This document shows positions 43,696 through 63,093 of a stretch of 64,000 nucleotides of DNA, one piece after another. The notes under the pieces were generated by a model. That model ran no database searches. It was given only the letters and a program-made list of their open reading frames with translations, and had not been told where the DNA came from. Origin of the DNA: a virus. The stretch covers positions 34,930 through 98,929 of the IMG/VR virus record IMGVR_UViG_3300042889_002115; one strand, written 5' to 3'. Position 1 is the stretch's first letter. Each line of letters begins with the position of its first letter. The position numbers and the translations under genes are program-made.

Positions 43696-44215
43696 AGGTC
43701 TTGAATACAAAGACATGGAGGGCCTGATCAAGCCCACAATCTTTGTGGACGAATTTGCGGCCAAGATGGGCGACGATGATGATATCATTGTGATTTCATT
43801 CTTTGTGCGTGACCTACAAGCAGCCAAGGACCTGATGGCCTGGTTTGAAAAAGGCTATGACTTTGTGCTGGATGCAGATCGCAGCCCCGGCGAAATCAAA
43901 CCAGGACGATACCTGGTTTATGTGGAACTGCGTCGCAGAAGCACTGCACCAGTCAATGTCAATACACTGCTGGAAGACCTTGCCAGCCTAACAGAATTTG
44001 ACACTGCAGACTGGCGCATGAGCTACAAAGGCAATGAGTCTGACTGGAGCGAAGAAGCATTTGCTGAACAAGTTCCACTCACACCCGACGCATATCGCAA
44101 GCGTTATGAAGGCGACCTAAACGAAATGCGTGTGGCAGCAGGTATTGCTCCACGCCGCATACATGAACCTCGTGAAGATGTACAAGCACTACAAAGCATG
44201 GCAGGACTACGATAA
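43640..44215 (+). CDS. Conserved large-phage hypothetical protein
   Basis: DEF..KMG.DDD..V.SF...A.DL..W.EKGY.FVLDAD.S.GE. Confidence 0.7.
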   Translation: MQNNHYNNPFNPAKPLLLEGLEYKDMEGLIKPTIFVDEFAAKMGDDDDIIVISFFVRDLQAAKDLMAWFEKGYDFVLDADRSPGEIKPGRYLVYVELRRRSTAPVNVNTLLEDLASLTEFDTADWRMSYKGNESDWSEEAFAEQVPLTPDAYRKRYEGDLNEMRVAAGIAPRRIHEPREDVQALQSMAGLR

Positions 44216-46686
44216 TGAGAATCACCGAACTAAACAAACGCACACGAATTGACGAATCCTTGCTGTTGCAAGATCCTGTTTATCGCAGTTTCAAACAAGT
44301 GGGTCGCTACCTTGCTGAACGCCGCATGAGCGAAAAAGAAATTCTACAGGTGTTTGCTGACGCAGAAACAGGCATGACCAACACAGCCACTGGCACCAAT
44401 CGTACCATGCTGGGACGCGGCAAAGACAAGGCCACAGATCTTGCAGCCAGCATTAGAGATTCGGTCAACAAGGTGTTGAGCGGTGTACAGAATTCTGTGC
44501 CTGTGTCAGCAGTTGACACTGCTTACGATCAGGCCACTGATGCCCTGGCTGGCCTGGCCGGCGGACAAAAAGGTGCAGTAATGCAGGCGATCAAGAAATA
44601 TCGCATGCTGGTAAAGAAATATCCCAAGTCTGCTGGATTCGCCAAAGCAGCACTGGTGGCCGTCACAGGCCTGGCCACAGGCGGTGCAAGTCTTCCAGTC
44701 ATTGCTGGCCTAACCTATGCGTTGGACGCAGCAATCAAAGGCGAAAAACTTTCCAGCGTGTTTGGCAAAGGTGCAGGTGCAGCAGCACTGGCCTGGGCAG
44801 GTCAATCTATTGCTGGTATGTTTGGGGCAGACCCAGCAGCTGGTGCAGCAGCCGCTGGTACTGATCCAGCTGCCGCGGCGTCTACATTTGTACCTGGTCC
44901 TGACTTGCCTACATACACTGTGCAAGCCGGCGACACACTGAGTCAGATTGCTCAAGCAAACGGTGTATCGGTACAAGAACTAGTTGGGCTAAATCCACAA
45001 TTGGCAGCAGACGCTGGCGCTGTTGGTGGCCAGAATCTCAACCCTGACGTGATATTTCCCGGACAAGAAATTACATTGCCGCCTGCATCAGGAGCCGACG
45101 TTTATGCTGGTGGTGTAGGCACCAGTGCTGACACCATGGCAGACATTGCCAAAGGCAATGTGCCTGACAGTTCTATTTCGCAGACCGCAAGCCTGGAGCG
45201 CCTGGGAGGGGTTGACGCTGCTGATGTGAGTCAAGCTGCTGCTGATCCATCAAAATATTCTGCTCCTATTGATTACAGTCAATCTGGACCAACCGGTACT
45301 GACTCACTGGGACAAAAATTAGAATACGGCATTCCTGTCAACGACAAGGGTAGTTTTATTCCACCAAACGCTGGTTTGCCCGCTGACGAATTGGCCAGAC
45401 AAACAGCCGCATATGATGCCTGGAAAGCAGACTTTACCAAACGTTTTCCAAGTGCTGAACTACAGCCAGACGGATCTATGAAAGCGACCAAACCAGGCCT
45501 AGCGCCCATGTATCCATCAAACTACACACCCGGTGGTGCCAGCGGTTCAATAAGACCAAAAGGATTTACAGAATCTGTCAAGTTGATAAGATTACCGGTC
45601 AGTCAGTTGATTGACAAAAAAACAACCATCTTGAATTGGAAATTGAACGAAAGCACAGGACGCAAGAGCAAAACTGTGAACTTAACCACTGCTGGCGCCT
45701 ACACAGTGTTTGAAAACGTTGACCGATACCGCAAAGCCATCATGGAACTCAAGGGTGTGCCTGGAAGCACACGCCCGGCATTGTATCGTCCCGACATGGC
45801 GGGTGCTCCAGTTGCACCTGCAGCCAAAAAACCCGGCCTATTGAGCCGTGGGCTCAGCAAAGTAGGTGGTGCACTGAGCACATTTGGTCGTCAATTTACC
45901 ACCAACGTGACCAAAGAAAAACTCAAGATGAACTGGCATCAAAAGGGCAAACCCAGTGATTCAGATCAATTGGCTGCTTGGTTGGTCACACAAGGCGTGC
46001 CACAAGAAGTGGTAACTTCAGTTTACAGTAAAATGGGTCTACCAGTTGCTGCGGCTGCTACGGTAGCAGCACAACCAACAGCAGCACCAACAGCTCCTAC
46101 CGCACCAACAACACCAACAACACCAACAGTAGCTACACCAACAGTAGCTACACCAACAACACCAACAACACCAACAGTAGCTACACCAACCGCCGCTACA
46201 ACCAAGCCAACAGCAACCACAACAGCCGGTAAATTCCCAGGTGAAGATCCGCAAGGTGCTGGCTATATTGGTCGTAGAGAAGTTGCTCGTCGTCAGGCTG
46301 CACGTGATGCAGCGGCTGCCAAGAAACCAGTCACACCCAATTTTGGTCAACAGAATGCTGGTTACAAGAGTGTGAACTATGCACCCGCTATCAAAACTGG
46401 GGGTAGTTTGCCTAAATCAACTGCTGCACCAGCCGCAGCACCAACAAAGACACCAACTCAAGCAGAAAAGGATGCTTACATCAAATCAATTGGCGCACCT
46501 GCCATGGCCGAAACCAGCAATGAAAAAATTGGTGGACGATACGAACCTGATGAGTTTGACGCCATGATGAGTAGACTCAAGAAACTGGCCGGGGCAGGAC
46601 CGTTAAAAACTGTGTATGATCCTGCCCGACGTGTGTACAAGAATGTACCCACTGCTGCACAACCACTGACACAACCTAAAAAATGA
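44215..46686 (+). CDS. LysM-domain putative virion/ejection protein with P/T-rich linker
   Basis: [28 protein letters not shown]...[10 protein letters not shown]; leader MRITEL...IDE; hydrophobic A/G segment. Confidence 0.75.
46070..46225 (+). repeat. Low-complexity PT/PTVAT coding repeats
   Basis: ACACCAACA and ACACCAACAGTAGCT units. Confidence 0.85.
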
Positions 46687-46790
46687 AAACATACAACTTC
46701 ACAGTCAACGGCAAGACTTATACTATTGAAGCTGAAAACTTTCAGGTAGCTCGTGCTATTCTGGCTCAGCGTATTTCAGCTGGTGCCTAA
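46683..46790 (+). CDS. 35-aa protein (paralog of 48300..48407; not in ORF track)
   Basis: [35 protein letters not shown]; ATGA overlap. Confidence 0.65.
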   Translation: MKTYNFTVNGKTYTIEAENFQVARAILAQRISAGA

Positions 46791-46791
46791 C

Positions 46792-47151
46792 ATGAGATAC
46801 AGAGAAATTCTCGAAGCTTGTTGGACTGGTTACCGCCAGGCTGGCATGAAGAAAAAAGGCGATCGCATGGTGCCCAATTGTGTTCCTGTGAACGAAGCCG
46901 AACTGGAAGAAGATCTACGCAAGTGGTTCAAACAAAAATGGGTGCGGTTTGGACCTGATGGCAAGATCCGTGGTGACTGTGCCCGTGGTTCAGAATCTGA
47001 AGGCAAGCCCAAGTGTTTGCCACAGGCCAAGGCACATGCACTGGGCAAAAAAGGTCGTGCAAGTGCAGCAGCCAGAAAACGCCGCAAAGATCCTGATGCC
47101 AATCGTTCAGGCCCAGCAATAAATGTTAGTACCAAAGGAAAAAGCAAATGA
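46792..47151 (+). CDS. Basic Cys-containing modular putative head protein
   Basis: MRYREILE|ACWTGY...VPNCVPVNE...LEE|DLRKWF..KWV...C......KPKCLP. Confidence 0.75.
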   Translation: MRYREILEACWTGYRQAGMKKKGDRMVPNCVPVNEAELEEDLRKWFKQKWVRFGPDGKIRGDCARGSESEGKPKCLPQAKAHALGKKGRASAAARKRRKDPDANRSGPAINVSTKGKSK

Positions 47152-48269
47152 TAATATCTGATCTACTGACTGAATCTGCTGGTCGTTGTCCTGAGTGCGG
47201 AGGCCCTGCTTTCTCAGATTTAATACTGGCCGAAAAGAAAGATGCCTGCTATCACAAGGTCAAGGCTAGTGCAAAAGTATGGCCCAGTGCTTATGCATCA
47301 GGTCGCCTGGTACAGTGTCGCAAAAAAGGTGCTGCCAACTATGGCAACAAGTCAGAAGGTGTGGCGGAGGACGAAGAGGTCTACCTCGGAGGAATGTCCA
47401 GGGCAGAAAGAGAAAGCCGCTTCAGACGTAGAAAACAAGATCTATTACAAGATTATGCTTTGTTGGGTAAGCTAACAACAGACATGATTCGTGCAATTAA
47501 TAACGAAGTGTTTTTGACAAAAGAACAAATAATTGATTTTTACAAGCAACAAATCGAAGATCCTGATTTAACAGCATTAGAATATGCTCATGACAATAAT
47601 ATTCCAAGTAGCGGATTGTTAAAAGGTGTTTTACGCTACCTGGTCCAGCGCGGTTTTAGTATGCTTGACATTCGTAAGTTAATGGGAAAAGCAGCTGAAC
47701 AAAAAAAGAAAGATACGCTGGCATTGCCGCCACCTGGACCTGGTGAAGGTGTAGCGGAGGTCACAGGCGATGAAAAATTTAACAAAGCAATGAGACGAAC
47801 CACTGGCGACATCACTTCAGACGATGCTGCCGAAATGTGGCCAACACAAGAATTTGAACCAATTAATCTTGATTCATCATACTTGCCAATGATGGAGAAA
47901 TACAAGGCAAAATTATTTCCGTTAGCTTATGAATACTGGACTGACGGTGACAATGCAGATGAATTAAGAGCACTAGGTTGGGAGCCTGATTACGGCGACG
48001 ACTATGTTATGGTGGTGCTGTCTGGCATTGGACATGATGGTCATATCCAATATGACAAATATGATTTTGATGCCGAAGGTGAAAATGTGACGGAAGCAGC
48101 AGACAACACTGCCTTTCGACAAGGCTACGAACGAGGCATACGATACTATCGTCGCGGCCCACAAAATCCCTACCAACCCAGAACTCTAGAGTTTACAGAC
48201 TACAATGATGGCTATCAGATGGGCGAAGCTGACAGTTATGACAAATATGACACCTCAAGCATGGATTAA
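47148..48269 (+). CDS. Modular polyprotein with GVAE junctions (putative head cargo)
   Basis: MIISDLLTE leader; CxxC; junctions ILAE, GVAE x2, NVTE. Confidence 0.7.
   Translation: MIISDLLTESAGRCPECGGPAFSDLILAEKKDACYHKVKASAKVWPSAYASGRLVQCRKKGAANYGNKSEGVAEDEEVYLGGMSRAERESRFRRRKQDLLQDYALLGKLTTDMIRAINNEVFLTKEQIIDFYKQQIEDPDLTALEYAHDNNIPSSGLLKGVLRYLVQRGFSMLDIRKLMGKAAEQKKKDTLALPPPGPGEGVAEVTGDEKFNKAMRRTTGDITSDDAAEMWPTQEFEPINLDSSYLPMMEKYKAKLFPLAYEYWTDGDNADELRALGWEPDYGDDYVMVVLSGIGHDGHIQYDKYDFDAEGENVTEAADNTAFRQGYERGIRYYRRGPQNPYQPRTLEFTDYNDGYQMGEADSYDKYDTSSMD
47355..47760 (+). repeat. 16-bp direct repeat GAAGGTGTRGCGGAGG flanking an AT-rich in-frame module
   Basis: Copies at 47355-47370 and 47745-47760; related CAAGGTGTGGCGGAA at 62368-62382. 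Confidence 0.85.
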
Positions 48270-48299
48270 AACTCCAGGTAACCAAAAACGAATTAAGAA

Positions 48300-48407
48300 A
48301 TGAAAACTTATAGGTTTACCAACCGCGGCCAAGAATTCATAATACAAGCTGTGGATTTGACCGCAGCACTGGTCATTTATCGTGAGCGACTGCGTGATGC
48401 GAGCTAA
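48300..48407 (+). CDS. 35-aa protein (paralog of 46683..46790)
   Basis: MKTYRFTNRGQEFIIQAVDLTAALVIYRERLRDAS. Confidence 0.6.
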   Translation: MKTYRFTNRGQEFIIQAVDLTAALVIYRERLRDAS

Positions 48408-48756
48408 AGAATTTGCACACTTGAAAGAAGATGCTGTGGAGGATCTTGAAAAAGATCTTGACAATCCCACGAGCTACAGTGCAATTGATCACATGATGCA
48501 GACCATTGCTAGAGATCACGGCATCACTGGCAAACAGTTGCACGATGCATTTGTGGCCAAACATGGTGTGATTCCAGACAAGTGGACACGCAAACAACTA
48601 AAAGAACTTAGCTTTTTGGGATCTGAATGTACCAAGGACTGCTCGGGGCATCGAGCTGGTTATGACTGGAGTGCCCGCAAAGGCAATCGCCCAGGCAACA
48701 GTCCCTACAGTCCCAGCTTCAACAAAGGCGCCAATCTCCGAGCCGCTGGCAAGTAA
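48397..48756 (+). CDS. Two-module putative head protein
   Basis: MRAKEFAHLKE leader; IDHMM..IA..H.ITGK.LH..F..KH...PD.W; LKE| then CTKDCSGHRAGY.W. Confidence 0.7.
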   Translation: MRAKEFAHLKEDAVEDLEKDLDNPTSYSAIDHMMQTIARDHGITGKQLHDAFVAKHGVIPDKWTRKQLKELSFLGSECTKDCSGHRAGYDWSARKGNRPGNSPYSPSFNKGANLRAAGK

Positions 48757-49485
48757 TCACAGCCGAGTATAAACAAAGTACAAGCGTTCGTTGGCTTCAC
48801 GCTTGAATGTGTCCAGCTTTAGATTGTACAGTTCAGCAAACTCATTTGCTATTTCAAACGTCCAAGGAAAGATTTCCACATAAGGACCTGTCTTGTGCGG
48901 AATTCCCGGATTGGCTCGCAAAAAGAATTTGCCACCAGGCCGAAGCAAACTCACACAATGTGCAAATCGTACCTGAATATCTTCTCGGCTGTTGAAGTTG
49001 ATGGATCCCAGTGCAATAATCACATCATGGCTTTCAGGTCGGACTCGGTAATCTAATATATCCACTTCGTAATCTGCGCAGTTATTGTAGGGGTCTATAC
49101 CAATTAGGTTCTGGATGCGTCCTTTGAATGGATGATAGCCACAGCCCACATCCAGCACACTCACAGGATCGAGTTTGTTGATTTGATCTGCCAACTCCCA
49201 GCCTGTGTGCTCGTAGTCGCCGGTGCGTGGTTTCCAGATTTCACTGAAGAAACGCAGGATATAGCGTTCACTTAGATCATCTACAATATCTCGCAGTGTG
49301 CCTTGATAGTCACAGGACAAGCTGAGTTCAGCTTCTACAGCGTCTTTGAACTTGGCGTATCTTGCTGGTGTCCACGGCAGTTGATCTACCGGTGTATCAG
49401 CATCAATAACAATTTTCTGATACTTGGGTAAATTAAACGCAGACTGAAGATTTTTTTGGATTAGAGTAAAAATTTTTGTGTTCAT
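48757..49485 (-). CDS. Class I SAM methyltransferase with N-terminal ACP-like domain
   Basis: VLDVGCG, GIDP, LLRPGG; N-terminal I..DT....L......VE.E......TLRDIVD. Confidence 0.8.
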   Translation of the reverse strand: MNTKIFTLIQKNLQSAFNLPKYQKIVIDADTPVDQLPWTPARYAKFKDAVEAELSLSCDYQGTLRDIVDDLSERYILRFFSEIWKPRTGDYEHTGWELADQINKLDPVSVLDVGCGYHPFKGRIQNLIGIDPYNNCADYEVDILDYRVRPESHDVIIALGSINFNSREDIQVRFAHCVSLLRPGGKFFLRANPGIPHKTGPYVEIFPWTFEIANEFAELYNLKLDTFKREANERLYFVYTRL

Positions 49486-49537
49486 GAGAAAAATTTGGTA
49501 AATAAATGTGATTCAAAGTTATTTAAGGAGTTTTACT

Positions 49538-50494
49538 ATGATCAAAAAATTATTACTGGTGTTGTTGGCCGTGCCTGTTATGGCTGCTGCCTGGCAACCC
49601 ACCAAACCTGTAACAGTTATCTACCCCAATGGCCCCGGTGCAGGCAACGAAATTTCATTTCGCATTGTGGCCGACATTGTGGAAAGAAAAACCGGTACAG
49701 TATTCCGAGCAGAGCACCGACCAGGCGCAGATGGTAACATTGCTATCAATCACTTTGCCACTGTACCAGCTGATGGATACACTGTGGCCATGCCTGCTTG
49801 CAACTCCAATTGGGTTACAGCAGAAGTTTGGTACCCACAAACAGTCAAGTACAATATGTTTGATTTTGAACCAGTGGCCAACATTGCCAAGAGTCCACTA
49901 GCATTTTGGGCAAACCCTGCTAGCAAAGTAAACACACCTGAAGATTTAATTCGTGAAATTCGAAGCAAGAGCCGGCCACTTAACTTTGCTATCGGCGGCG
50001 GCGGACACAAACTAGCAGTGGAATACCTAACAGATGCACTAGCTGTGCCGGGCGGTGATCGAGTACAAACTGCCATGTACAAAGGTCCAGCGCAAGCATT
50101 GTTGGATGTCATAGGTGGCCATGTGGAATTTGCAGTTACTCCAGTGGGAGTAGGTTATCCCCATGTCAAGGCTGGCAAACTCAAGCTGATTGGTTTGGCC
50201 AGCGAAGTTCCGCTCAAAGGTCTAGAGTCTGCTGAATTAATGAGCAAGTATGCTCCAGGACTCAACTTGTATGGTTGCTGGAACTTGATTCTGCCCAAGG
50301 GCACACCACAAGATGTACAGCAATGGTATCATGACAATTTTGTGCCGGCTATCCGTAGCGCAGAAGCACAAAAGAAGTTTGATGATAATTTGATGTTTAT
50401 CACTCGGAAAGAACACACCCCGGCTGGTGTGCATGCGGCCATGGTTAGACTCAAGTCAGACTGGACTCCGATTGCTAGAAAGGTTGCGCCTTGA
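49538..50494 (+). CDS. Bug/TctC tripartite tricarboxylate transporter substrate-binding protein
   Basis: Signal peptide; W.PTKPV, RPGADG.I, ADGYT, YKG.AQAL.DV.GG.V, PKGTP; TAAATA at 49499. Confidence 0.92.
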   Translation: MIKKLLLVLLAVPVMAAAWQPTKPVTVIYPNGPGAGNEISFRIVADIVERKTGTVFRAEHRPGADGNIAINHFATVPADGYTVAMPACNSNWVTAEVWYPQTVKYNMFDFEPVANIAKSPLAFWANPASKVNTPEDLIREIRSKSRPLNFAIGGGGHKLAVEYLTDALAVPGGDRVQTAMYKGPAQALLDVIGGHVEFAVTPVGVGYPHVKAGKLKLIGLASEVPLKGLESAELMSKYAPGLNLYGCWNLILPKGTPQDVQQWYHDNFVPAIRSAEAQKKFDDNLMFITRKEHTPAGVHAAMVRLKSDWTPIARKVAP

Positions 50495-50547
50495 AATACC
50501 CAGCATAAAAATATCAAATACACAACATTATCTTGATAAATTAATGC

Positions 50548-51408
50548 ATGACACAATCTAAACGTATACTAATCATGGGCTTGCCTGGCTCGGGCAAAAC
50601 CTACTTTGCCGAAAAGCTAAAGAAATACCTGGAGGACAATTCTAATACACAGACCATGCCAGTTGAGCGTATGCTGCACTTAGAATTGCCGCCCATTTAC
50701 TATACCAGCAAGGTGGACTGGTTCAATGCAGATGATGTGCGCAAACGATTCAACGACTGGGATTTCAGCCGTGAAGGGCGCATTCGTCAAAGTATCAGAA
50801 TGTTTGATTTTGCTGTGAGCTGCACTGAAGACTTTGTGATCTGTGACTTTGTGGCACCTTTGGTGGAGATGAGAAACAACTTCAAAGCAGATTGGACCAT
50901 CTGGATGGACACCATTGATGCAGGCCGCTACGAAGATACCAACCGAGCGTTTGTTCCACCCGAGCAGTATGACTTTAGAGTCACAGAACAAAATGCTGAA
51001 AAATGGGCAGAGTTTGTGGGTGACCATATTTTGTATAATCGTCGGCGTCCAAGATTTGATTGGCAACGAGAAACAGTGCAAATGTTGGGTCGTTGGCAAC
51101 CTTGGCATGCAGGACATCGGGCCTTGTTTGATCGACTTATTGCTCGTACTGGGCAAGTTGTCATACAGATTCGTGATGTGCAAGGTTGGCAAGGTTCAAA
51201 TCCTTTTGCAGTACAACAAGTAAAAGACTTTATTCGTCGAGATCTAGACCCATTGTATCAGGGACAATACGAAATACAAGTGGTGCCCAACATTGTACAC
51301 ATTGGGTGGGGGCGCGGGGTAGGATACACGTCAGGTGAAGAAACATTTGACGAAACCATTACAAACATTTCTGCCACCAAAATCCGAAAAGAATTAGGGT
51401 TAAAATAA
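50548..51408 (+). CDS. Adenylylsulfate kinase-like domain fused to an HxGH nucleotidyltransferase domain
   Basis: GLPGSGKT, ADDVR...DFS.EGR, DFVAP; C-terminal GRWQPWHAGH...ISATKIR. Confidence 0.85.
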   Translation: MTQSKRILIMGLPGSGKTYFAEKLKKYLEDNSNTQTMPVERMLHLELPPIYYTSKVDWFNADDVRKRFNDWDFSREGRIRQSIRMFDFAVSCTEDFVICDFVAPLVEMRNNFKADWTIWMDTIDAGRYEDTNRAFVPPEQYDFRVTEQNAEKWAEFVGDHILYNRRRPRFDWQRETVQMLGRWQPWHAGHRALFDRLIARTGQVVIQIRDVQGWQGSNPFAVQQVKDFIRRDLDPLYQGQYEIQVVPNIVHIGWGRGVGYTSGEETFDETITNISATKIRKELGLK

Positions 51409-51455
51409 AATGTTCAACTGTGTGAAATGTAATGTATTATTAGAAAGAACTTATT

Positions 51456-51623
51456 ATGTCAGAAAACAAACCAACTTTTATACAAGCAATCAAAGCAGCA
51501 CAGGCGCTCAAAACCAAAATTTCGCCTGAGACGGCGGCAACAATACAACAAACAAAGAAAACACCTAGGTCGCAGGTCACCACCAACAAGCCCACCACAC
51601 GAACCACTGGCCGCGGTAGATAA
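51456..51623 (+). CDS. Small basic protein (55 aa, not in ORF track)
   Basis: MSENKPTFIQAIKAAQALK...RTTGRGR. Confidence 0.5.
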   Translation: MSENKPTFIQAIKAAQALKTKISPETAATIQQTKKTPRSQVTTNKPTTRTTGRGR

Positions 51624-52490
51624 ATGATATTGTCTGATTTATTTCAACTTTTTAGAATCAATCAACATTGGGGCACGTCAGGAATAGATTCTATTAAGCG
51701 ATGTTTGAACAAACAACATTTTTTAAACTATCCGCACAAGGTTGAATATCAGTACAACAGTCGAGGATTTAGAGATGCCGAATGGCCTGAGACTATACAG
51801 GAGTTACAGAACGCTATTTGGTGTGTTGGAGACAGTTTTACTGTGGGTATTGGCAGTCCTTATGAATTCACGTGGCCGCAAGTTCTAGCCAAAGCCACTG
51901 GTCGCCGATGTATCAATGTCAGCATGGACGGTGCTAGCAATACCTGGATTAGTCGCCGTGCCAGACAAATTATTCATGAAATCAACCCAACTCACATGGT
52001 AGTGTTATGGTCGTACATTCATCGTAGAGAATTGCCTAACGTTGATATCCCTGACGAAACTAGAATGATGCATTTTGACAAATCCCAGTCAGAATTAGAC
52101 GATCTTAAGAATTTTATCAATTGCTACACCAATTTAAAAAATTGTACAGCAAGTGTCAATATATTTAACGGAATTATACCACGTTCGGGAGTGAATGGTG
52201 TTTGTGATCATATGATCCAAAGCTGGCACAACATAAAAGATCCTTCATGGTCTGAATTTCCCCCAACTACACAGGTTGAATTTGACCAATTACCTGCCCA
52301 TATAAAACAAGAAACTACTGATATATTTTCCAATGACCAGTTAGAAATTTGGTTTATTAAAAACAATTTTTGTAATATAAATCAACTGACTGCATTGTCC
52401 ATGTTAGACTATGCTAGAGATTACCATCATTTTGACTGTATCACTAGCGAGTTTTTTGTTAAACAGATTCTCAAGAACTTTGATGATTAA
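51624..52490 (+). CDS. SGNH-like hypothetical protein
   Basis: YNSRGFRD, GDSFT.G.G, N....GASN, ARD..H. Confidence 0.7.
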   Translation: MILSDLFQLFRINQHWGTSGIDSIKRCLNKQHFLNYPHKVEYQYNSRGFRDAEWPETIQELQNAIWCVGDSFTVGIGSPYEFTWPQVLAKATGRRCINVSMDGASNTWISRRARQIIHEINPTHMVVLWSYIHRRELPNVDIPDETRMMHFDKSQSELDDLKNFINCYTNLKNCTASVNIFNGIIPRSGVNGVCDHMIQSWHNIKDPSWSEFPPTTQVEFDQLPAHIKQETTDIFSNDQLEIWFIKNNFCNINQLTALSMLDYARDYHHFDCITSEFFVKQILKNFDD

Positions 52491-53700
52491 CTAAATCTGT
52501 TGTAGATTTGTGCCAGAATTGATTTTCTTGCCGGACCTGATTTAAAACATCTTCAGCAGCAATTGGTTTTGCAATGCTCGAATTGTTGATTGCCCAATGG
52601 TTGTATATTTCAGTCAATTGATCGAAATTTTTTACTATCTTTGTTTTTTCGGCCAGGGTTTGTTTTTTGATTGGTGGCCCATTCTTCAAAATTCCTAATT
52701 TGACCATTTGATCAATAGTCTTTTGTGCTTCTACATAGCCTTGTTTTGCAAAAGACAATTCAGATTGTCGATCTTGTGGCAACAAAGAAAATATGCCCTC
52801 TTGACGAACATAGTCACGTGTAAATTGTGTTTTGATTGACACGGGCAGTTGATTAATATCTTGCGGTGTAGTTATTGCTGGCCAATCTATTGGCGATTTT
52901 TGCTGATAGTAAGACACTGACTCAGGAAGGTCTAATATCAATTGGTCAATTTTGTTGTTTGAGTCAAACATTAAACTACTCAAATCACTGCGAGCATAGT
53001 GCATCTTGTTCCAGGTGTTGAATGTAATTCCAAAGTTTTTTTCCCAGGTTACCAATTCAGGCTGACTGCTAAACACTGGAAGGCCAAGAATAAACTGTTC
53101 AAGTCTTGGCACATCTTGTTCGTAGTTAAAATATGAACTTACGTTGAAATACTGATTGCTCCAGTTGATATAATCACGGTACGCATTGAGCTGATACTCA
53201 AAAGCCTGCGAATCAAGTTGTATTCCTGATTGATAAATGTCATAAAATGTATCTATTTTTTCAGTGGCTGAATATACATTTAATTTTTTAGTTACTTTGT
53301 TGAGTGTCATACTCAAAGCATGCTCGAACACATTGGCTCTGCGACACGCAATTATGTAAAAGTTTTTGTTAAGGTACTGATAAAAAGGCACCTGTTGAGC
53401 AACAGTATCGTTGCGATGACGTATATGATAATGCGCAAGTCTGGAAGTTTTATAATGATCTACACTGCCGAGTAGTTCAACCACTTGTTCCAGCGACTGA
53501 TAATACCCCCAGTTTTTGATTGCATGTTTGCTTACAAGTTCCTGGTTGAATTCAGGACTGTAATACTTGGCCAGGCCATTGGTTAATTCGTGCAGGTTAA
53601 TCACCGGACGGCCGAACTGATGAAACTGCATGTATATGGTCAGCATGCGTTGCAACAAAGTGCTGCCCACAGCGTCGGGCGTCAGAATTAATACATTCAT
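52471..53700 (-). CDS. Sulfotransferase-like P-loop protein
   Basis: LILTPDAVGSTLL (5'-PSB-like), RRANVFEHALS (3'-PB-like), FNYE. Confidence 0.55.
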   Translation of the reverse strand: MNVLILTPDAVGSTLLQRMLTIYMQFHQFGRPVINLHELTNGLAKYYSPEFNQELVSKHAIKNWGYYQSLEQVVELLGSVDHYKTSRLAHYHIRHRNDTVAQQVPFYQYLNKNFYIIACRRANVFEHALSMTLNKVTKKLNVYSATEKIDTFYDIYQSGIQLDSQAFEYQLNAYRDYINWSNQYFNVSSYFNYEQDVPRLEQFILGLPVFSSQPELVTWEKNFGITFNTWNKMHYARSDLSSLMFDSNNKIDQLILDLPESVSYYQQKSPIDWPAITTPQDINQLPVSIKTQFTRDYVRQEGIFSLLPQDRQSELSFAKQGYVEAQKTIDQMVKLGILKNGPPIKKQTLAEKTKIVKNFDQLTEIYNHWAINNSSIAKPIAAEDVLNQVRQENQFWHKSTTDLVNHQSS

Positions 53701-53800
53701 ATAGCAATACTTATGATGTAAAAATTATGTGCCCAGTTAATCACGACGTGAATCACGCCAGAATGGGATAAATATTCTTATATAACAAGGTATCAACACT

Positions 53801-53869
53801 ATGCAAATTAGCACTGCACAACTGCAACAAATCATACCCGGTAATCCCTATGTTTAGCATGGCTGCTAA
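53801..53869 (+). pseudogene. Remnant of a second GH19 endolysin N-terminus
   Basis: MQISTAQLQQIIPGNPYV*HGC* aligns with LTLSQLEEMVPGNPHIDSW of the next gene; TAAATA at 53769. Confidence 0.6.
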
Positions 53870-53910
53870 CACACAGGGTGGTCAGTCTAAAATTAATGGA
53901 GCACACTAAA

Positions 53911-54537
53911 ATGTCAAACAATTTTGGGTTAACATTGTCACAACTGGAAGAAATGGTTCCGGGAAATCCTCATATTGATAGTTGGTACGAAGCACTGGAG
54001 CAGATACTGCCAGACTACGATATCAACACTCCGCAGAGAATTGCAGCATTTGTTGCTCAATGCGCTCATGAAAGCGGTGGATTCAAATTTATCAAAGAAA
54101 ATTTAAATTATAGGGCAGTCAGTCTGCGCAAGACTTTTGCCAAGTATTTTCCCACAGATGAATTGGCACAGCAGTATGCAGGCAAAGGCGAAATGATTGC
54201 CAATAGAGTTTATGCCAATCGCATGGGCAACGGCAATGAAGCCAGTGGCGATGGTTATCGTTATTGTGGTCGAGGCCTTATTCAGTTGACTGGCAAAGAC
54301 AACTACACTCGCTATGCCGAAAGCACAGAACAGTCAGTGGAAGAAGCCAGCGAACATTTATTAACCTTCGAAGGCTGTGTACAAAGTGCTGCATGGTTCT
54401 GGGAAGCCAACAACTTGAATCAATGGGCCGACAAGGGTGACATTGTCACCTTGACCAAACGAATCAATGGCGGCACCATTGGGCTCGAAGATCGTATCAA
54501 ACACTATAATCATGCTTTACATGTGCTAGGATTATAA
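53911..54537 (+). CDS. Endolysin, glycoside hydrolase family 19
   Basis: AAF.AQ..HESG, ENLNY, GRGLIQLTG..NY, SAAWFW, RINGG..GL.DR. Confidence 0.93.
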   Translation: MSNNFGLTLSQLEEMVPGNPHIDSWYEALEQILPDYDINTPQRIAAFVAQCAHESGGFKFIKENLNYRAVSLRKTFAKYFPTDELAQQYAGKGEMIANRVYANRMGNGNEASGDGYRYCGRGLIQLTGKDNYTRYAESTEQSVEEASEHLLTFEGCVQSAAWFWEANNLNQWADKGDIVTLTKRINGGTIGLEDRIKHYNHALHVLGL

Positions 54538-54538
54538 T

Positions 54539-55021
54539 ATGTGGTTACTGCATTTCTTTTCGGACAGTTTTTTACAGTTTATAGTCAATGCAGTATTGAT
54601 AACTGGCGTAGTCGGCACTGTTTTATTCTGTTTCTTTCTCAATAAGATTTTACAATTTTTTCCGCCACTGGCACCGTACTACAAAGCATTGCAAATTGGC
54701 AGCATAGTTGTACTGTTGGCTGGCGTGTACTTTAAAGGCGGCTACGCTACTGAAATGATTTGGCGTGACAAGGTAAAAGAAGTAGAAGCCAAGTTGGCCG
54801 CAGCTGAAGCTGAAAGCAAAAAAGAAACTGTAAAAATTGTAGAACGGGTTGTCAAGAAGACCGAAGTTATTCAGCGGCGTGGGCAAGATGTTGTTCAATA
54901 TATTGATCGAGAAGTTGTCAAATACGATACAAAATTTTTACCTGGTGGCGTGTGTGAAATACCAAAAGAATTTGTCAAAGCACACAATGACGCTGCTACT
55001 CCAGTTGAGGCTAAGAAATGA
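54539..55021 (+). CDS. Putative inner-membrane spanin (Rz-like)
   Basis: N-terminal TM helices, coiled coil, C-terminal Cys; next to endolysin. Confidence 0.7.
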   Translation: MWLLHFFSDSFLQFIVNAVLITGVVGTVLFCFFLNKILQFFPPLAPYYKALQIGSIVVLLAGVYFKGGYATEMIWRDKVKEVEAKLAAAEAESKKETVKIVERVVKKTEVIQRRGQDVVQYIDREVVKYDTKFLPGGVCEIPKEFVKAHNDAATPVEAKK

Positions 55022-55287
55022 AATATCTATTATTACTGTCAGTAGTGTTGTTACAAGCCTGTGGCACAACAGTACCAGTCTCTGCAAAATTTCCCGACAG
55101 TCCAGGCGCAATTGCAACACAAACATGCCCCGCATTGCAGCAACTATCACAGGATCCCAAACTAAGCGAAGTATCTAAAACAATCACCATCAACTATACC
55201 ACCTACTATGAATGTGCAATCAAAGTTGATGCCTGGAATGATTGGTACAAAATACAAAAAAATATTTTTGAAAAGGCAGCAAAATGA
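55018..55287 (+). CDS. Putative outer-membrane spanin lipoprotein (Rz1-like)
   Basis: Lipobox LLQAC; Pro-rich; two further Cys. Confidence 0.75.
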   Translation: MKYLLLLSVVLLQACGTTVPVSAKFPDSPGAIATQTCPALQQLSQDPKLSEVSKTITINYTTYYECAIKVDAWNDWYKIQKNIFEKAAK

Positions 55288-55781
55288 GTAAAGAAACAAA
55301 AAAAGAAGACTGGATGAATTCAAAATGGCGTCCAGCCATGGGTTGGATGTACATGGTTGTCTGTATGATGGACATGGTGATATTTCCCATACTATGGAGT
55401 CTACTACAGACCGTAACTCACACACCTATCACTCAGTGGAATCCGTTGACACTGCAAGGCGCTGGACTATTTCACCTGGCCATGGGTGCAGTGTTAGGTG
55501 TTGCTGCGTATGGTCGTACGCAAGAAAAACTTGGCGGAGCCAACAATGGCGGAATACAAACACCAACAACAGGATTCTCCAGCGGGCCTTCAACATTTAG
55601 CCAACCGTCGGCAGGAGGCTTCGGTTCTCCAGCACCAAGTAGCTTTGCTGGTAGTTCAGGATTTGGAACGGCAACGCCTGCATCAAGTTTTACCCCAGCA
55701 CCAAGTTGGGGGACAACCCCAACAGCAACAACAGCCAGCGGTAAGAAAGTTGTACCAGAGTTTAATCAGCCAGAAATTTAA
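55284..55781 (+). CDS. Putative holin (3TM GTA-type holin family)
   Basis: KWRPAMGW.Y, LG...YGRT.EK; low-complexity tail. Confidence 0.75.
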   Translation: MSKETKKEDWMNSKWRPAMGWMYMVVCMMDMVIFPILWSLLQTVTHTPITQWNPLTLQGAGLFHLAMGAVLGVAAYGRTQEKLGGANNGGIQTPTTGFSSGPSTFSQPSAGGFGSPAPSSFAGSSGFGTATPASSFTPAPSWGTTPTATTASGKKVVPEFNQPEI

Positions 55782-56010: not shown

Positions 56011-56020
56011 CGACTAACTC

Positions 56021-56057: not shown

Positions 56058-56067
56058 CGACTCAAAT

Positions 56068-56835
56068 ATGGATCACTACAAAACACTTGATGTTGCTCGT
56101 ACTGCCACTCCGGACGAAATAAAAAAAGCCTATCGCAAGCTGGCTTCTCAACATCATCCTGACAAAGGCGGCAACACTGTCAAGTTTCAAGAACTGCAAA
56201 CTGCATACGATACCCTGAGCGATCCTGCCCAGCGAGCTGAATACGACAACCCTAGACCGCAGTTTTCAGGATTCCCCGGCGGTGGATTCAACATGCACGA
56301 CATCTTTGGACAGATGTTTGGTCAGCAGTCCGGACAAACATCTCGCAGAAATCATGTGCGTATGACTGTGTGGATCACCTTGCTGGATGTGGCGCAAGGC
56401 GGCAGTCGCACTGTGAATGTAGGCACATCAACAGGGTCCAGCACCGTGCAAATTGAAATCCCAAAAGGCATCAACGATGGAGACAATGTTCAATACAGTG
56501 GCGTGGGCCCAGGTGGTGTAGACCTGATTGTGCAATTTCGAGTCCGCCCAGATGCCAGATGGCGCCGAGAAGACCTCAATCTCTACTGCGAGCATCGTGT
56601 GCCAATCTGGGACCTGATTCTAGGAGTCGAGACCGAAGTGATCAATATACTAGGACACCAATTGGTTGTGGGTGTGCCGCAAGGCACTCAACCGGGCACC
56701 ACCATGCGACTGAAAGGACATGGCCTGCAGGATCGTCACGGCCAAACAGGAGATCTAATGTTACGTGTTCAAGGCGAAATACCCAAAACAATTGCCCCAG
56801 AAATTGTGGCGGCCATACAACAATACCAAAAATAA
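56068..56835 (+). CDS. dnaJ: DnaJ/CbpA-type co-chaperone (no zinc finger)
   Basis: J-domain with HPD; G/F region; DnaJ C-terminal domain. Confidence 0.92.
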   Translation: MDHYKTLDVARTATPDEIKKAYRKLASQHHPDKGGNTVKFQELQTAYDTLSDPAQRAEYDNPRPQFSGFPGGGFNMHDIFGQMFGQQSGQTSRRNHVRMTVWITLLDVAQGGSRTVNVGTSTGSSTVQIEIPKGINDGDNVQYSGVGPGGVDLIVQFRVRPDARWRREDLNLYCEHRVPIWDLILGVETEVINILGHQLVVGVPQGTQPGTTMRLKGHGLQDRHGQTGDLMLRVQGEIPKTIAPEIVAAIQQYQK

Positions 56836-56837
56836 AC

Positions 56838-56866
56838 TTGCATTGCAGTTGGCATTGCGTTATAAT
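56838..56866 (+). promoter_or_regulatory. sigma70-type promoter
   Basis: TTGCAT-17-TATAAT. Confidence 0.7.
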
Positions 56867-56890
56867 AAACAAAACAACTCAAGGATTCCA

Positions 56891-59149: not shown

Positions 59150-59811
59150 CAGCCACAAGAAACGTTGCCACTTCACAGTTGTATTTTGGCCAGTATCAGT
59201 ACTGTCTCAGCTTTGGCATGCTGTACTCAGCACAGATGCGCAAGCTAGATCCTGAACGGATCCTGACCAACATACGCTGGAAAAACTCCAGAGTTGTGGG
59301 ATATATCAGCCGAGGAAATATGTTTGTAGACCAACAAGAACTGGTTGCCGCTGAACTGGCCTGTCTGGAACTAGCTGCTGAATTACAGTCAGCTGCGGAA
59401 CCGTTTAGGCGTGTGTGCCAGTGGGAATCACAGGCTATTTACAGCAACGATCATGCCTGGCTGTTGCGCTTGGCCAAGTTTCCGGGCCTAGACAATCAGC
59501 TAATTTCCACTGCTGTGGTCAGTCGTCCACACAATCAGATACAGTTGAAACAAAGTGACTGGGCATGGCGCAGCTACTTTCGGGAACAACGTCTGGATCA
59601 ACCGGCGGCTGCTCGCCTGCGTGATTTTTTTCACAGTCGTGGCAACTATTTCAGACTCACTGACTCTTTTCGGCATCGTTTGGCACAGCCTGCATTCTAC
59701 ATGCAGCGTTGGCAGTTTGTGGATCATCACACGGAAGCAGACGTTACCATGCTGACCATGTTCATGCCCGGGCTGGTAAGAAAGACCGTACCCATCACTG
59801 TGACTAAATAA
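59146..59811 (+). CDS. Hypothetical protein
   Basis: ATGA overlap; 221 aa. Confidence 0.65.
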   Translation: MTATRNVATSQLYFGQYQYCLSFGMLYSAQMRKLDPERILTNIRWKNSRVVGYISRGNMFVDQQELVAAELACLELAAELQSAAEPFRRVCQWESQAIYSNDHAWLLRLAKFPGLDNQLISTAVVSRPHNQIQLKQSDWAWRSYFREQRLDQPAAARLRDFFHSRGNYFRLTDSFRHRLAQPAFYMQRWQFVDHHTEADVTMLTMFMPGLVRKTVPITVTK

Positions 59812-59817
59812 TACACT

Positions 59818-59985
59818 ATGGCAAAAATCATCGAACACGTTCTGGTAATAAAATTCAGTAAAATTGCAAAAGACTCAGAATCTGAATCTGCAGCAATTGT
59901 CAGTGCCGACATTCAACAAGCACTGGAACAAGTGGCCCAGGAACTGGTGGGCAGCAGTATTGTGGTGGAAATTGGACCAGCATGA
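59818..59985 (+). CDS. Small late protein (55 aa, not in ORF track)
   Basis: MAKIIEHVLVIKFSKIAKD...ALEQVAQELVG...VEI; TAAATA at 59805. Confidence 0.7.
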   Translation: MAKIIEHVLVIKFSKIAKDSESESAAIVSADIQQALEQVAQELVGSSIVVEIGPA

Positions 59986-60344
59986 TCACCACTGAAACAC
60001 TGCTGACTGCTGTGATTCACGGAACTCCGTCAGGCAACTACGACGGGTCCAGTCAGGACTGGTTCAGTGACGCAGTCAAAGCTGCTGACTACTATCGTGG
60101 TCGCGGCGGTGTACAAACCATTGGATTTAGTGTTACTGGATTTCAGGGCGAAATTATAATAGAAGCCACACTAGACACAGATCCTGATTCGGCTGCTTGG
60201 TTTGTCACACTGACCTACGGCGACGCCAGCAGTGTGATCACACAAACGCTGTCTGAATCTGTTGTGGGCAATTTCACTTGGCTGCGGGCCAGGATTGAGG
60301 CATTTGAATCCGGCACCATCAACACAGTGACTGCAACCTACTGA
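59982..60344 (+). CDS. Beta-rich putative structural protein
   Basis: YY....G.QT......F.G.I.IEATL..DP....WF...GNFTWLRA. Confidence 0.7.
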   Translation: MITTETLLTAVIHGTPSGNYDGSSQDWFSDAVKAADYYRGRGGVQTIGFSVTGFQGEIIIEATLDTDPDSAAWFVTLTYGDASSVITQTLSESVVGNFTWLRARIEAFESGTINTVTATY

Positions 60345-60345
60345 A

Positions 60346-60780
60346 ATGGACACTTCTAGAATTTCATTTGAGATCTCTCCTTCGGATCAGGCTTGTCCAC
60401 TAGGTGTGGAAGTTTGGCTAGATCAACAACAAATTTTCAACACCGAACATCTTGCTGACACAGTTAATGTATCACATGATATTGACGAAAACAATGCCGA
60501 ACACGTACTGCGTGTTGTACTCAAGCACAAAAAAACCGAGCATACCACAGTAGATGCTGATGGCAACATCACACAAGACGCTGTGATCAATGTTGGCTCA
60601 TTTAAATTTGAAGAAATTGATATCAATCAAACGGTTCAGGATCTGGCCATTTACACCCACGATTTTAACGGTTCAGGCAACACAACACAAAGCAAGTTTT
60701 TTGGCAGCATGGGCTGCAACGGCACCCTGAGTCTAAAGTTTACCACTCCTGTTTATCTCTGGTTGCTGGAACACATGTAG
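60346..60780 (+). CDS. Hypothetical protein (paralog of 3885..4316)
   Basis: MGCNGTLSLKFTTPVYLWLLE. Confidence 0.7.
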   Translation: MDTSRISFEISPSDQACPLGVEVWLDQQQIFNTEHLADTVNVSHDIDENNAEHVLRVVLKHKKTEHTTVDADGNITQDAVINVGSFKFEEIDINQTVQDLAIYTHDFNGSGNTTQSKFFGSMGCNGTLSLKFTTPVYLWLLEHM

Positions 60781-60795
60781 GGCTAAATACCTGGT

Positions 60796-63093
60796 ATGAA
60801 ACAATTAGTCATCATGCCTGGCGGATTTCACCCTTTTCACGCAGGCCATCTAGCACTTTATCAATCTGCTGTTCAGGCTTTTCCTGGCGCTGATGTCAAA
60901 GTAGCTGCTACCAACGACACATCAACTCGTCCATTCCCTTTTGCACTCAAAGAAAAACTAGCACAACTGGCAGGAGTCGCCCCGGGCAACTTTTATCAAG
61001 TCAAAAGTCCATTTCGTGCTGAAGAGATTACCAAGAGTTACAATCCTGCTACCACACAGTTGATCTTTGTTCGCAGTGAAAAAGATGCCAACAAACTACC
61101 GCAAGCAGGAGGGGTCAAACGTGATGGCGCACCTGCATATCTGCAGCCCATCAGTGATCAACTGGCACCAATGACTCAGCATGCCTACATGGTGTACTTG
61201 CCCACAGTGGAGTTTGGTCCAGGCATGACCAGTGCCACAGAAATACGCTCTGCCTGGCCCACACTCACAGATCGCCGCAAAACAGCCTTGGTCATGAGCT
61301 TGTACCCCAAAACACAACGCAACCCCAAACTGGCTGCTGTTGTGGTCAAAATGCTGGATACTGCCATTGGCACACAAGAAGTAGATGAAAGATCGCTGAA
61401 AGAATTTGCTCCCGGGTCAGGCGGTGATGACGACATCGGCGATGATCCCTACAAGTATCCCAAGCCAGAGCGGTACCGTCGCAGTGCGGATTACTTTGGC
61501 CAATTTGAAGCAGATCATTTTGATCGTGAAGCCTTTGATGATGCCACTGGTGAGTTCAAAGGCTACTGGGGGCGTACACCAATTGCTTATTTCAAGTTTG
61601 ACAACCCAGCACGAACTGGCAGCGATGATCCGGGCCGAGGCTGGTACTACGAACCACAGTCAAACAACAGCGGTGACGACACCAGTGCCGAACCTGCTGA
61701 TGATAACGCTGAGCAACGCAAGCAACAAGAGTTGGGCATGATCCGTCAGTTTTTGAAATCTGGCAATCGACCAAATCCAGACAGTCAAATTGGTCGATTG
61801 ATGAAAAAACATGGCATAGAGGAAGATCTAAGCCGCAGAGGATTCTTACGAGGCCTAGGCGCTGCGGCTGCTGGTGCGGTCGGTGTTGGCGCTGCTGGTC
61901 CGGCTCAAGCACGATCAACTGATGCGTCACGAAAAGAAGATGCTGAGGCCTTGGCATTACTGGCCAAAGGTATGACTCCTGAACAAGTTGCTAAAAAATT
62001 AGGAGTTGCTGGACCAAATCACGGGCAGACCCATCATATGGGTGGTCGGTGGGCTTCAATCAATCGGGCAGCAGCACAGCTCCGACGACAACGAGGCCTA
62101 AACGAATTTGCAATGGGCGGCGGTGACGATGACGGCAACGATGGCTTCAGTGATGACACACTTAAACAGCTGGCAGCACAGTGGTACAATGGCGACGAAG
62201 ATCCCAGAGTAGAACAAACACTGGCAGCAGCAGGTTGGGAAATTGGTCAAGATGAAGGCTATGATGATACACCGGGTGTGTTTGTGGTGCAGGCCGGAGA
62301 CATCAACGGCAACAGCTATATCAGTTGGCCTGCCCACGAACTAGAAGGCCTGGCCGAAGCAAGCAAGCAAGGTGTGGCGGAAAACTTTGCTGATGGTAAA
62401 AACCCACAAGACAAAGGTGATGCCAAGCGTCACGGTATCAACACCAAGGCCAGTGTAAGCAGTCTACGCAAAACTGCCAAGCAAGGTGGACGCAAAGGAC
62501 AACTGGCACACTGGTTGGCCAACATGAAAGCTGGCCGAGCCAAGAACGAGGACATAACAGAAGATAATGACTGCCCTCCGGCTACACAGGATATCTCACT
62601 CAATCTCAAGAACAGACAAAAAGCCATCAACGAATACGGTTACGGTCCGCTCAACCCAGACTTGCCCAACACCAAGTTCTGGATGAAAAAGGTTGATGAG
62701 TGGAATCTAGACAGCATGGAAGAAGCACAAAGCAGCTTGTGCGGTAATTGTGCAGCATTTGACATACGACAAGAAACTCTAGACTGTATTGCACAAGGTA
62801 TTGATAGTGATAGTCCCGAAGACGCCGAAGGTGTGATTGATGCTGGCGACTTGGGCTATTGCAAGTTCCTAAAGTTCAAGTGTGCAAGCCGCAGAACATG
62901 TGATGCTTGGGTAACCGGTGGACCACTAGAGGACAAACCAGTTGACGAAAATCAAGGTTGGGCAGCAACATACCAAGAAGCAGACTCTGACTATATTGAA
63001 GAAAAGTGGAGCGCAAAATACAAGAGCAGTATCAATTGTGCCAATCCCAAAGGATTTAGTCAAAAAGCTCACTGCGCTGGTCGTAAAAAATAG
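60796..63093 (+). CDS. HxGH nucleotidyltransferase-like domain followed by a string of E-delimited modules (polyprotein)
   Basis: PGGFHPFHAGH...SATEIR; junctions LKE, IEE, LNE, LAE, VAE, ITE, VDE, IEE; TAAATA 6 nt upstream. Confidence 0.8.
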   Translation: MKQLVIMPGGFHPFHAGHLALYQSAVQAFPGADVKVAATNDTSTRPFPFALKEKLAQLAGVAPGNFYQVKSPFRAEEITKSYNPATTQLIFVRSEKDANKLPQAGGVKRDGAPAYLQPISDQLAPMTQHAYMVYLPTVEFGPGMTSATEIRSAWPTLTDRRKTALVMSLYPKTQRNPKLAAVVVKMLDTAIGTQEVDERSLKEFAPGSGGDDDIGDDPYKYPKPERYRRSADYFGQFEADHFDREAFDDATGEFKGYWGRTPIAYFKFDNPARTGSDDPGRGWYYEPQSNNSGDDTSAEPADDNAEQRKQQELGMIRQFLKSGNRPNPDSQIGRLMKKHGIEEDLSRRGFLRGLGAAAAGAVGVGAAGPAQARSTDASRKEDAEALALLAKGMTPEQVAKKLGVAGPNHGQTHHMGGRWASINRAAAQLRRQRGLNEFAMGGGDDDGNDGFSDDTLKQLAAQWYNGDEDPRVEQTLAAAGWEIGQDEGYDDTPGVFVVQAGDINGNSYISWPAHELEGLAEASKQGVAENFADGKNPQDKGDAKRHGINTKASVSSLRKTAKQGGRKGQLAHWLANMKAGRAKNEDITEDNDCPPATQDISLNLKNRQKAINEYGYGPLNPDLPNTKFWMKKVDEWNLDSMEEAQSSLCGNCAAFDIRQETLDCIAQGIDSDSPEDAEGVIDAGDLGYCKFLKFKCASRRTCDAWVTGGPLEDKPVDENQGWAATYQEADSDYIEEKWSAKYKSSINCANPKGFSQKAHCAGRKK

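Follow-up and report, generated by a model that had tools for sequence, protein, structure and literature searches.

The window analysed here is a 64,000-nucleotide stretch of viral DNA (positions 34,930–98,929 of IMG/VR record IMGVR_UViG_3300042889_002115), the last 64 kb of a 98,929 bp contig with a CheckV completeness of 29% and an implied genome of ∼340 kb. Its source is a jumbo phage of the PA5oct/Atu_ph07 type. Five of its genes, designated by their first positions (44215, 46792, 47148, 48397 and 60796), encode members of one family of more than 5,500 environmental phage proteins made of shuffled modules, which meet at a short recurrent peptide, the joint, and in several cases follow a short N-terminal leader. 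With moderate confidence, we interpret the joints and leaders as Peptidase S77 cleavage signals and targeting signals of head cargo. The ∼9-residue leader would act like the capsid-targeting sequence (CTS) of the phage T4 internal proteins, drawing the protein into the prohead scaffolding core; a gp21-type (Peptidase S77) prohead protease would cut after the Glu of the leader and of every intermodule joint (consensus Q-G-V-A-E↓G, with an aliphatic residue at P3 and Glu at P1; arrows mark the position after this Glu); and many small proteins would be released, staying in the head with the DNA and probably being delivered along with it. The predicted cargo in the window consists of basic Cys-rich modules, an NMNAT-like enzyme, a HiPIP-like module, a LysM domain and a module bearing a Tat signal; ParB_N-like and RMF-like modules, present in some homologs from other phages, would be cargo there.

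An earlier note on this DNA had proposed that such genes encode leader-bearing polyproteins cut by a prohead protease. Six independent comparative lines of evidence support the idea: the leader matches the T4 CTS positions, the joints keep Glu at P1 and an aliphatic residue at P3, leader and joint stand in the same register, S77 is present in all complete relatives compared, the modules are single genes in two phages that gave no match to S77, and internal Tat-like signals lie only shortly behind a leader or joint Glu. From these lines we infer targeting, cleavage, packaging and delivery of the GVAE-type proteins; their modules may act as effectors.

Leaders, joints and cassettes

Six leaders that the earlier note had picked out among the open reading frames (ORFs) were confirmed, at genes 44215, 46792 (MRYREILE), 47148 (MIISDLLTE), 48397 (MRAKEFAHLKE) and 22186 and at the minus-strand gene 369–1949. 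The leader consensus is M-[KR]-x-x-[DEQ]-[FLIV]-[FLIV]-x-E; its hydrophobic positions 3, 6 and 7 and Glu9 correspond, shifted by one, to Tyr4, Phe7, Ile8 and Glu10 of IPIII, which are mapped targeting and processing positions (PMC9026906). The T4 sequences compared (from NC_000866) are MAKINELLRE↓S in gp24, MLKEQLIAE↓A in gp22, the gp23 cut FLTE↓A and MKTYQEFIAE in ipII and ipIII, the leaders of the last two being identical in DNA (30/30 nt). At the N-termini of ORFs the strict leader pattern is found ∼5–6 times as often as at internal Met residues, with three occurrences against 0.5 expected on this contig and nine against 1.8 in one complete relative. About 55 different leader-bearing ORFs were found within 80 loci of relatives, and 33 of the 53 5′-intact ORFs carrying the joint 18-mer described below have a leader, compared with ∼2% of all ORFs.

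Environmental data contain more than 5,550 relatives of the 47148 protein, 205–653 residues long, the architectures of which differ by whole blocks meeting at one motif, [KQE]-G-V-A-E-[GADE]. The earlier note had treated any [ILV]-x-E as a module boundary. The sites that it listed in the 47148 and 60796 proteins (LAE, VAE, VTE, LKE, IEE, LNE, ITE and VDE) are all present, but the bare motif is weakly informative and the true joint is narrower (Q-G-V-A-E-G). Among 122 homologs, bare [ILVM]-x-E occurs 954 times against 544 expected from composition, whereas for G-V-A-E there are 165 occurrences where 1.5 would be expected, and GVAD, GVAQ and the reversed EAVG are absent. The neighbours of the joint are diverse, with 78 distinct upstream and 104 distinct downstream contexts.

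In a segment test, proteins were cut at G[VMLI][AS]E and the segments were compared with other proteins, with random cuts as reference; matches ran end to end in 5,728 of 19,431 high-scoring segment pairs (HSPs) for cuts at joints and in 134–284 of ∼24,000 for random cuts. This test took the place of a cruder one based on HSP end points, in which homology breakpoints were ∼4-fold enriched at the joint and not at the controls [ILVM]xD and [ILVM]xK, with some enrichment also at the control Ex[ILVM]. One relative (P0004) equals the 47148 protein minus residues 75–199, at 91–97% identity; in another (P0005), the 130-residue cassette of 47148 recurs at 95% identity within an unrelated protein, again flanked by two joints. 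On the point, raised in the earlier note, of whether modules come and go at the E motifs, its idea holds, because cassette presence and absence falls exactly at the joints in these proteins. A reading in which the motif arises in Glu-rich linkers by chance or through their composition, and does nothing specific, draws on the frequency of the bare motif and on the partial enrichment of Ex[ILVM] near breakpoints. It is very improbable and was rejected on the GVAE counts (∼100-fold over expectation, with zero for GVAD, GVAQ and EAVG), the diversity of contexts, the segment test, in which homology runs end to end between joints, and the identity of the joint DNA, which lies far above codon usage.

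Homologous joints vary (GVAE, DVAE, SVAE, GVEE, GVTE, GVKE, GVME, GMAE, SMSE, SIAE and GLAE). Across these variants P1 is always Glu and P3 is Val, Met, Ile or Leu, rarely Ser or Thr (VVSAE and VVTAE), while P2 and P4 are free. The variation follows the pattern of T4 gp21; processing of IPIII is controlled by residues 8 and 10 of its ten-residue CTS and is blocked when position 10 is Asp (PMC9026906). The linkers of the cyanophage gp114/T4-GC119 proteins are different and rich in Lys and Glu, yet a hydrophobic-x-Glu (h-x-E) motif stands directly ahead of each module, as in VNEE↓GLRDWF, LVE↓KCW, MVE↓GAAWT and VSE↓GWS.

Leader and joint are interchangeable, a given module keeping its register behind either. 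Relatives encode the HiPIP-like module as a gene of its own that starts MRELINFIE↓AVQQGCP; in the 60796 protein the module is internal and its boundary reads NEDITE↓DNDCPP. Likewise, the boundary ahead of the KWSxKYK module is MRATEFITE↓KWS in relatives, as against DYIEE↓KWS in the window. The CW module, which directly follows the leader in the 46792 protein, is preceded in other proteins by LVE↓K, LDE↓K or IDE↓K, again in the same register.

Tat signals function at N-termini. In the relatives, all eight Tat-like signals ([STD]RRxFL followed by an Ala/Gly-rich core; loci L021, L031, L076, L147, L150, L177, L217 and L244) lie 1–7 residues behind a leader or joint Glu, some of them at residues 109–608, and the signal of the window (61825–61911, residues 344–372 of the 60796 protein, with the motif at residue 346) is placed likewise. 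Such a placement would be sensible only if a cut exposed them. In Pelagibacter phage HTVC035P and in phage C75C1, neither of which gave an S77 match, these modules are encoded singly by leaderless genes of 78–84 residues.

The joint is also conserved as DNA. The exact 12-mer GGTGTGGCGGAA is found at 19 of 27 GVAE joints of unique context in leader-bearing ORFs, although the share predicted from the codon use of the same ORFs is 0.7% (P ∼1e-35) and GCG is a rare Ala codon; the three GVAE joints of the window (47358–47369, 47748–47759 and 62371–62382) are among the frozen sites. The 18-mer CAAGGTGTGGCGGAAGGC occurs in more than 120 IMG/VR contigs (L135–L214 and more), against an estimated one or two by chance, with up to four copies within 2 kb, and the ORFs reach 1,498 residues with up to seven joints. 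Chance occurrences of GVAE in ordinary proteins use other codons, and the leaders, unlike the joints, vary at synonymous sites. This conservation is a DNA-level constraint beyond what a protease site alone explains. The simplest reading is that the joint DNA would also serve as microhomology for in-frame cassette exchange, a role that would explain the extreme architectural diversity.

These DNA data favour an alternative in which the multidomain proteins remain uncut, QGVAEG being a conserved linker and its DNA microhomology for in-frame domain shuffling. Motif-mediated shuffling has a precedent in T4-type phages (PMC3157838, PMC2839356), where the glycine-rich motifs of the gp38 adhesins and the PeSL cassettes are likewise short conserved elements around hypervariable segments and are thought to mediate shuffling. 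Neither element is cut by a protease, however, and the PeSLs are intergenic instead of being part of a reading frame. A linker that is never cut is nevertheless unlikely. Diverged joints still keep Glu, and never Asp, at P1 and with rare exceptions an aliphatic residue at P3; the cyanophage linkers are unrelated and yet keep h-x-E; leaders that vary synonymously end in the motif and register of the joints; internal Tat signals make poor sense in an uncut protein; and the modules occur elsewhere as separate small proteins. The DNA role that it proposes is compatible with cleavage of head cargo, as a second role of the joint. A fuller combination of the two, which we put forward tentatively, is that the joint would act both in recombination, as a dedicated in-frame site, and in cleavage by the prohead protease, so that these genes would be exon-shuffling-like magazines, cut in the head and delivered with the DNA, with Tat signals unmasked for export to the periplasm of the new host.

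Protease, virion links and the proposed place of cleavage

Exactly one Peptidase S77 gene (PF03420) was found in each of five complete or near-complete relatives (320–347 kb), and S77 is also present in PA5oct, Atu_ph07 and cyanophages; by extension from these relatives, the phage of the window probably encodes one. In one complete relative (G003) the order runs from the portal through a 73-residue ORF (MILNELYQRE), an acidic protein, S77 (204405–205052) and a scaffold-like protein to a gp23 homolog (E = 8e-37), which is the gene order of T4. The gp23-type capsid protein of this relative has ILE34 and LKE42 near the position of the T4 cut at Glu65. The small leader-bearing ORF beside the protease is kept in all five relatives, and its PA5oct counterpart, gp333 (MKINDIITE↓G), is labelled 'structural protein, ESI-MS/MS'. 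In PA5oct the leader occurs on gp333 alone; the proteome of this phage is unable to test the joints because it has no GVAE polyprotein.

The cyanophage gp114-type homolog sits among head and tail genes, and in cyanophage S-SCSM1 it (ORF29) is annotated as 'virion protein' in GenBank. In the window, genes 43045, 43640, 44215, 46683, 46792 and 47148 form a chain in which neighbours overlap or are tightly spaced, and the modular genes are probably coexpressed with the structural genes because they follow them in this near-abutting chain. The enzyme at residues 1–198 of the 60796 protein belongs to the same family as NMNAT/cytidylyltransferase-like proteins that were detected in cyanophage virions (PMC9602691; PMC3037559).

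These data bear on a further alternative, in which genuine polyproteins are cleaved in the cytoplasm, by S77 outside the head or by another protease, and the modules work within the cell that makes them, for example once the Tat pathway has moved them into the periplasm, rather than as virion cargo. Modules bearing Tat signals require cytoplasmic folding and export, RMF-, ParB_N-, NMNAT- and SOD-type modules have intracellular roles, and the stand-alone modules of the two small phages lie among non-structural genes. We give this alternative a small chance. The leader matches the T4 CTS and is shared with the virion protein encoded beside the protease, the genes are chained to virion structural genes, and both the annotation of S-SCSM1 ORF29 and the virion-borne NMNAT-like proteins of cyanophages point to the head. 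To our knowledge, T4 gp21 is active only within the assembled prohead, which also counts against cutting in the cytoplasm.

Several observations weigh against the interpretation as protease-released head cargo and leave the idea of the earlier note upheld in part. No S77 gene lies on this 98.9 kb fragment, and one IMG/VR contig rated 99% complete (G007, 342,865 bp, the source of locus L168) has the joint 18-mer but no detectable S77 or gp23-type capsid gene. Neither the 60796 protein nor the cyanophage gp114-type proteins have an N-terminal leader. The location of the small-phage modules and the DNA-level constraint on the joint, both described above, belong here as well. An AlphaFold2 model of the 47148 protein, built from a 25-row alignment, had a predicted local distance difference test score (pLDDT) of 40, too poor to resolve separate domains. 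The genome paper of S-SCSM1 reports virion mass spectrometry (PMC9602691), but the supplementary tables of this paper and of PMC3037559 gave no peptide-level data for the cyanophage homolog, and the S-SCSM1 label comes from the annotation. Sullivan's 2010 summary of three cyanophage proteomes (PMC3037559) does not mark T4-GC119 as a virion protein, a silence that also favours cytoplasmic cutting.

Modular genes of the window and their surroundings

The features of the window are listed in Table 1. Matches to Pfam among its modular proteins were confined to LysM and a weak cytidylyltransferase hit, with no MuF, portal or metallopeptidase domain; DUF6321 (PF19846) matched none of the window proteins, while many homologs and cyanophage proteins do contain it.

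Table 1. Positions of the modular genes, their parts and associated genes in the window.
Feature	Position	Strand	Remarks
526-residue protein with leader-like N-terminus	369-1949	-	Sequence only; 14 leader-like residues followed by AS; weakest member of the set
Fe/Mn superoxide dismutase	22186-22734	+	∼17-residue N-terminal leader ending LIE↓AS; Sod_Fe_N residues 22-66, Sod_Fe_C residues 88-181
Virion structural gene	43045-43695	+	phrog_12928 'virion structural protein', E 2e-29
Virion structural gene	43640-44215	+	phrog_13138 'virion structural protein', E 2e-17
823-residue leader-bearing protein	44215-46686	+	Leader residues 1-14 (44215-44256), hydrophobic segments, long Pro/Thr/Ala-rich stretch
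44215, LysM, residues 234-289	44914-45081	+	E 4e-11
44215, C-terminal tail after MAE766	46513-46683	+	Conserved
35-residue ORF MKTYNFT..	46683-46790	+	ATGA-coupled to stop of gene 44215
119-residue two-module protein	46792-47151	+	Leader residues 1-8 (46792-46815) directly before CW.GY..VPNCVP module
46792, CW.GY..VPNCVP module	46816-46896	+	
46792, spacer VNE/LEE	46897-46911	+	
46792, LRKWF..PKC basic module	46912-47148	+	
373-residue putative polyprotein	47148-48269	+	Leader residues 1-9 (47148-47174)
47148, Zn-ribbon and WPSAYASG module	47175-47369	+	Closes with GVAE joint 1 (47358-47369)
47148, 130-residue cassette	47370-47759	+	Closes with GVAE joint 2 (47748-47759)
47148, acidic 112-residue module	47760-48095	+	Ends VTE
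47148, tail	48096-48266	+	
119-residue two-module protein	48397-48756	+	Leader residues 1-11 (48397-48429)
48397, module, residues 12-70	48430-48606	+	Ends QLKE
48397, Cys-rich module, residues 71-119	48607-48753	+	
765-residue putative polyprotein	60796-63093	+	No N-terminal leader
60796, cytidylyltransferase/NMNAT-like enzyme, residues 1-198	60796-61389	+	CTP_transf_like E 1e-3
60796, FAPG module	61405-61824	+	
60796, Tat-signal module, residues 344-437	61825-62106	+	
60796, module, residues 438-521	62107-62358	+	
60796, GLAE joint	62347-62358	+	
60796, GVAE joint	62371-62382	+	
60796, basic module	62383-62562	+	
60796, HiPIP-like module, residues 590-718	62563-62949	+	Phage records annotate residues 593-714 as HiPIP
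60796, KWSAKYK..C..C module, residues 737-765	63004-63090	+	

The C-terminal tail of the 44215 protein (..KKLAG.GP.KTVYDP..R.Y.N.PTA.QP.K) is common to dozens of otherwise unrelated modular proteins (P0026, P0036 and others); in relatives, the stop of the gene with this tail overlaps the ATG of a following leader-bearing ORF, giving trains of genes. Both modules of the 46792 protein recur in cyanophage gp114/T4-GC119 proteins and in PHROGs 727, 9737 and 23735. Matches of the 48397 protein to phrog_10346 and to cyanophages are confined to residues 10–70, and both of its modules reappear behind other leaders or joints in relatives (L018 and L048). For the acidic module of the 47148 protein (residues 205–316), an atlas search gave unnamed clusters only, and a tblastn search of the loci of the relatives gave too few copies for a better alignment.

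Pieces of the 60796 protein each match different proteins separately; in relatives, its enzyme occurs alone (249–335 residues) and the HiPIP-like module is a separate leader-bearing gene. These cytidylyltransferase/NMNAT-like homologs (L020, L035, L044, L062, L071 and others) all end in ..DYI[DE]E-K followed by 3–8 residues or by the KWS module, which hints at C-terminal processing. Such processing has been described for T4 Alt and gp21.

A CTS-like leader can also sit on an ordinary enzyme, as on the superoxide dismutase encoded at 22186, the leader of which resembles those of stand-alone HiPIP-like genes (MRELINFIE↓AV and MRQYINLVE↓AV); this product may be a virion-packaged dismutase with a CTS-like extension. 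The minus-strand protein 369–1949 has no Pfam or PHROG match.

The order of PhoH (minus strand), the two virion structural proteins, DnaJ and a ClpA/B-like ATPase is that of Pseudomonas phage PA5oct and Agrobacterium phage Atu_ph07; the synteny of the window is with these phages and not with phiKZ. Homologs of the two structural genes are gp189 and gp188 in PA5oct and gp306 and gp305 in Atu_ph07, and PA5oct gp189 is marked ESI-MS/MS. Between the second structural gene and DnaJ, the window has an insert of ∼12 kb that starts with the modular genes. An ORF was found in the slot behind the conserved structural gene at 72 loci of relatives. At 21 of these, chiefly from the nearest relatives, it is a leader-bearing ORF (117–653 residues); at most of the other 51 (L020, L025–L088), from more distant relatives, it is a GDSL/SGNH-like gene (M.LKSFGCSFIFGS..) and not a leader-bearing ORF. 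The paralogous 35-residue ORFs MKTYNFT.. (46683–46790) and MKTYRFT.. (48300–48407) lie immediately upstream of modular genes 46792 and 48397, respectively; it is uncertain whether the first of them belongs to the modular system. The remaining insert (48757–55781) contains a methyltransferase-like gene (minus strand), a TctC-family binding protein with a signal peptide (49508–50494) and a P-loop kinase-like gene, as well as a GH19-like lysozyme (53878–54537) and small membrane proteins, the last two of which resemble a lysis cassette.

Searches of the region against isolated phages with megablast and blastn gave no match, the module matches being at the protein level only. The T4 late-promoter octamer TATAAATA has one match against 1.15 expected and is thus not enriched. 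Gene 60796 has a TAAATA 7 nt ahead of its start; no promoter is claimed, because TAAATA is not enriched overall.

Relation to known systems and significance

The closest parallels are the T4 proteins IPI, IPII, IPIII, Alt and gp24, from which the gp21 prohead protease removes a CTS. They share with the window family a short leader, hydrophobic targeting positions, an aliphatic-x-Glu end and diverse cargo behind it, and relatives of the window phage have a gp21-type protease in T4 gene order. The T4 internal proteins, however, carry a single cargo and one N-terminal cut, whereas the window family has up to seven or more predicted cargo modules with putative internal sites and, unlike the T4 proteins, a fixed QGVAEG joint frozen at the nucleotide level and a common conserved C-terminal tail. 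Ejection and inner-body proteins of phiKZ, 201phi2-1 and SPN3US resemble the proposed products in gp21-like cuts after Glu, often at multiple sites, and in the ejection of the cargo (PMC5694885, PMC9026906). In that different jumbo lineage P3 is Ser, Ala or Gly and the cuts remove propeptides of more than 100 residues, while in the window family P3 is Val, Met, Ile or Leu and cuts would separate shuffled cassettes.

Polyvalent proteins (Iyer et al., 2017; PMC5512222) are likewise multidomain, predicted to be packaged and delivered and mosaic in rapidly changing architectures, and ParB-type domains occur in both groups; they differ in their large enzymatic conflict domains, usually with a MuF or portal fusion or their own Zincin-like metallopeptidase, whereas the modules here are mostly of 30–130 residues with a uniform protease-type joint. 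The cyanophage gp114/T4-GC119 proteins share at least four small basic Cys-containing modules with the window family, have h-x-E before each and are encoded in the head and tail block of gp21-bearing phages; they lack a CTS-like leader and the GVAE joint, and contain DUF6321, unlike the window proteins. In the literature searched, no description was found of strings of shuffled cargo cassettes with a uniform, nucleotide-conserved joint.

If the interpretation is true, phages have in these proteins a widespread means, not described before, of carrying protein cargo that can be swapped. Confirmation of cleavage and packaging would explain thousands of 'hypothetical' environmental and cyanophage proteins as protease-released head cargo and would extend the T4 internal-protein model from one leader and one cargo to a modular, expandable polyprotein. 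The joint would then be a rare case of selection acting on one short coding element in two ways, for its peptide and for its DNA as a site of cassette exchange. Together, leader and joint would provide tools for loading multiple proteins into phage heads and a simple sequence rule for recognising proteins that are injected, among which factors for anti-defence and host takeover are likely to be found.

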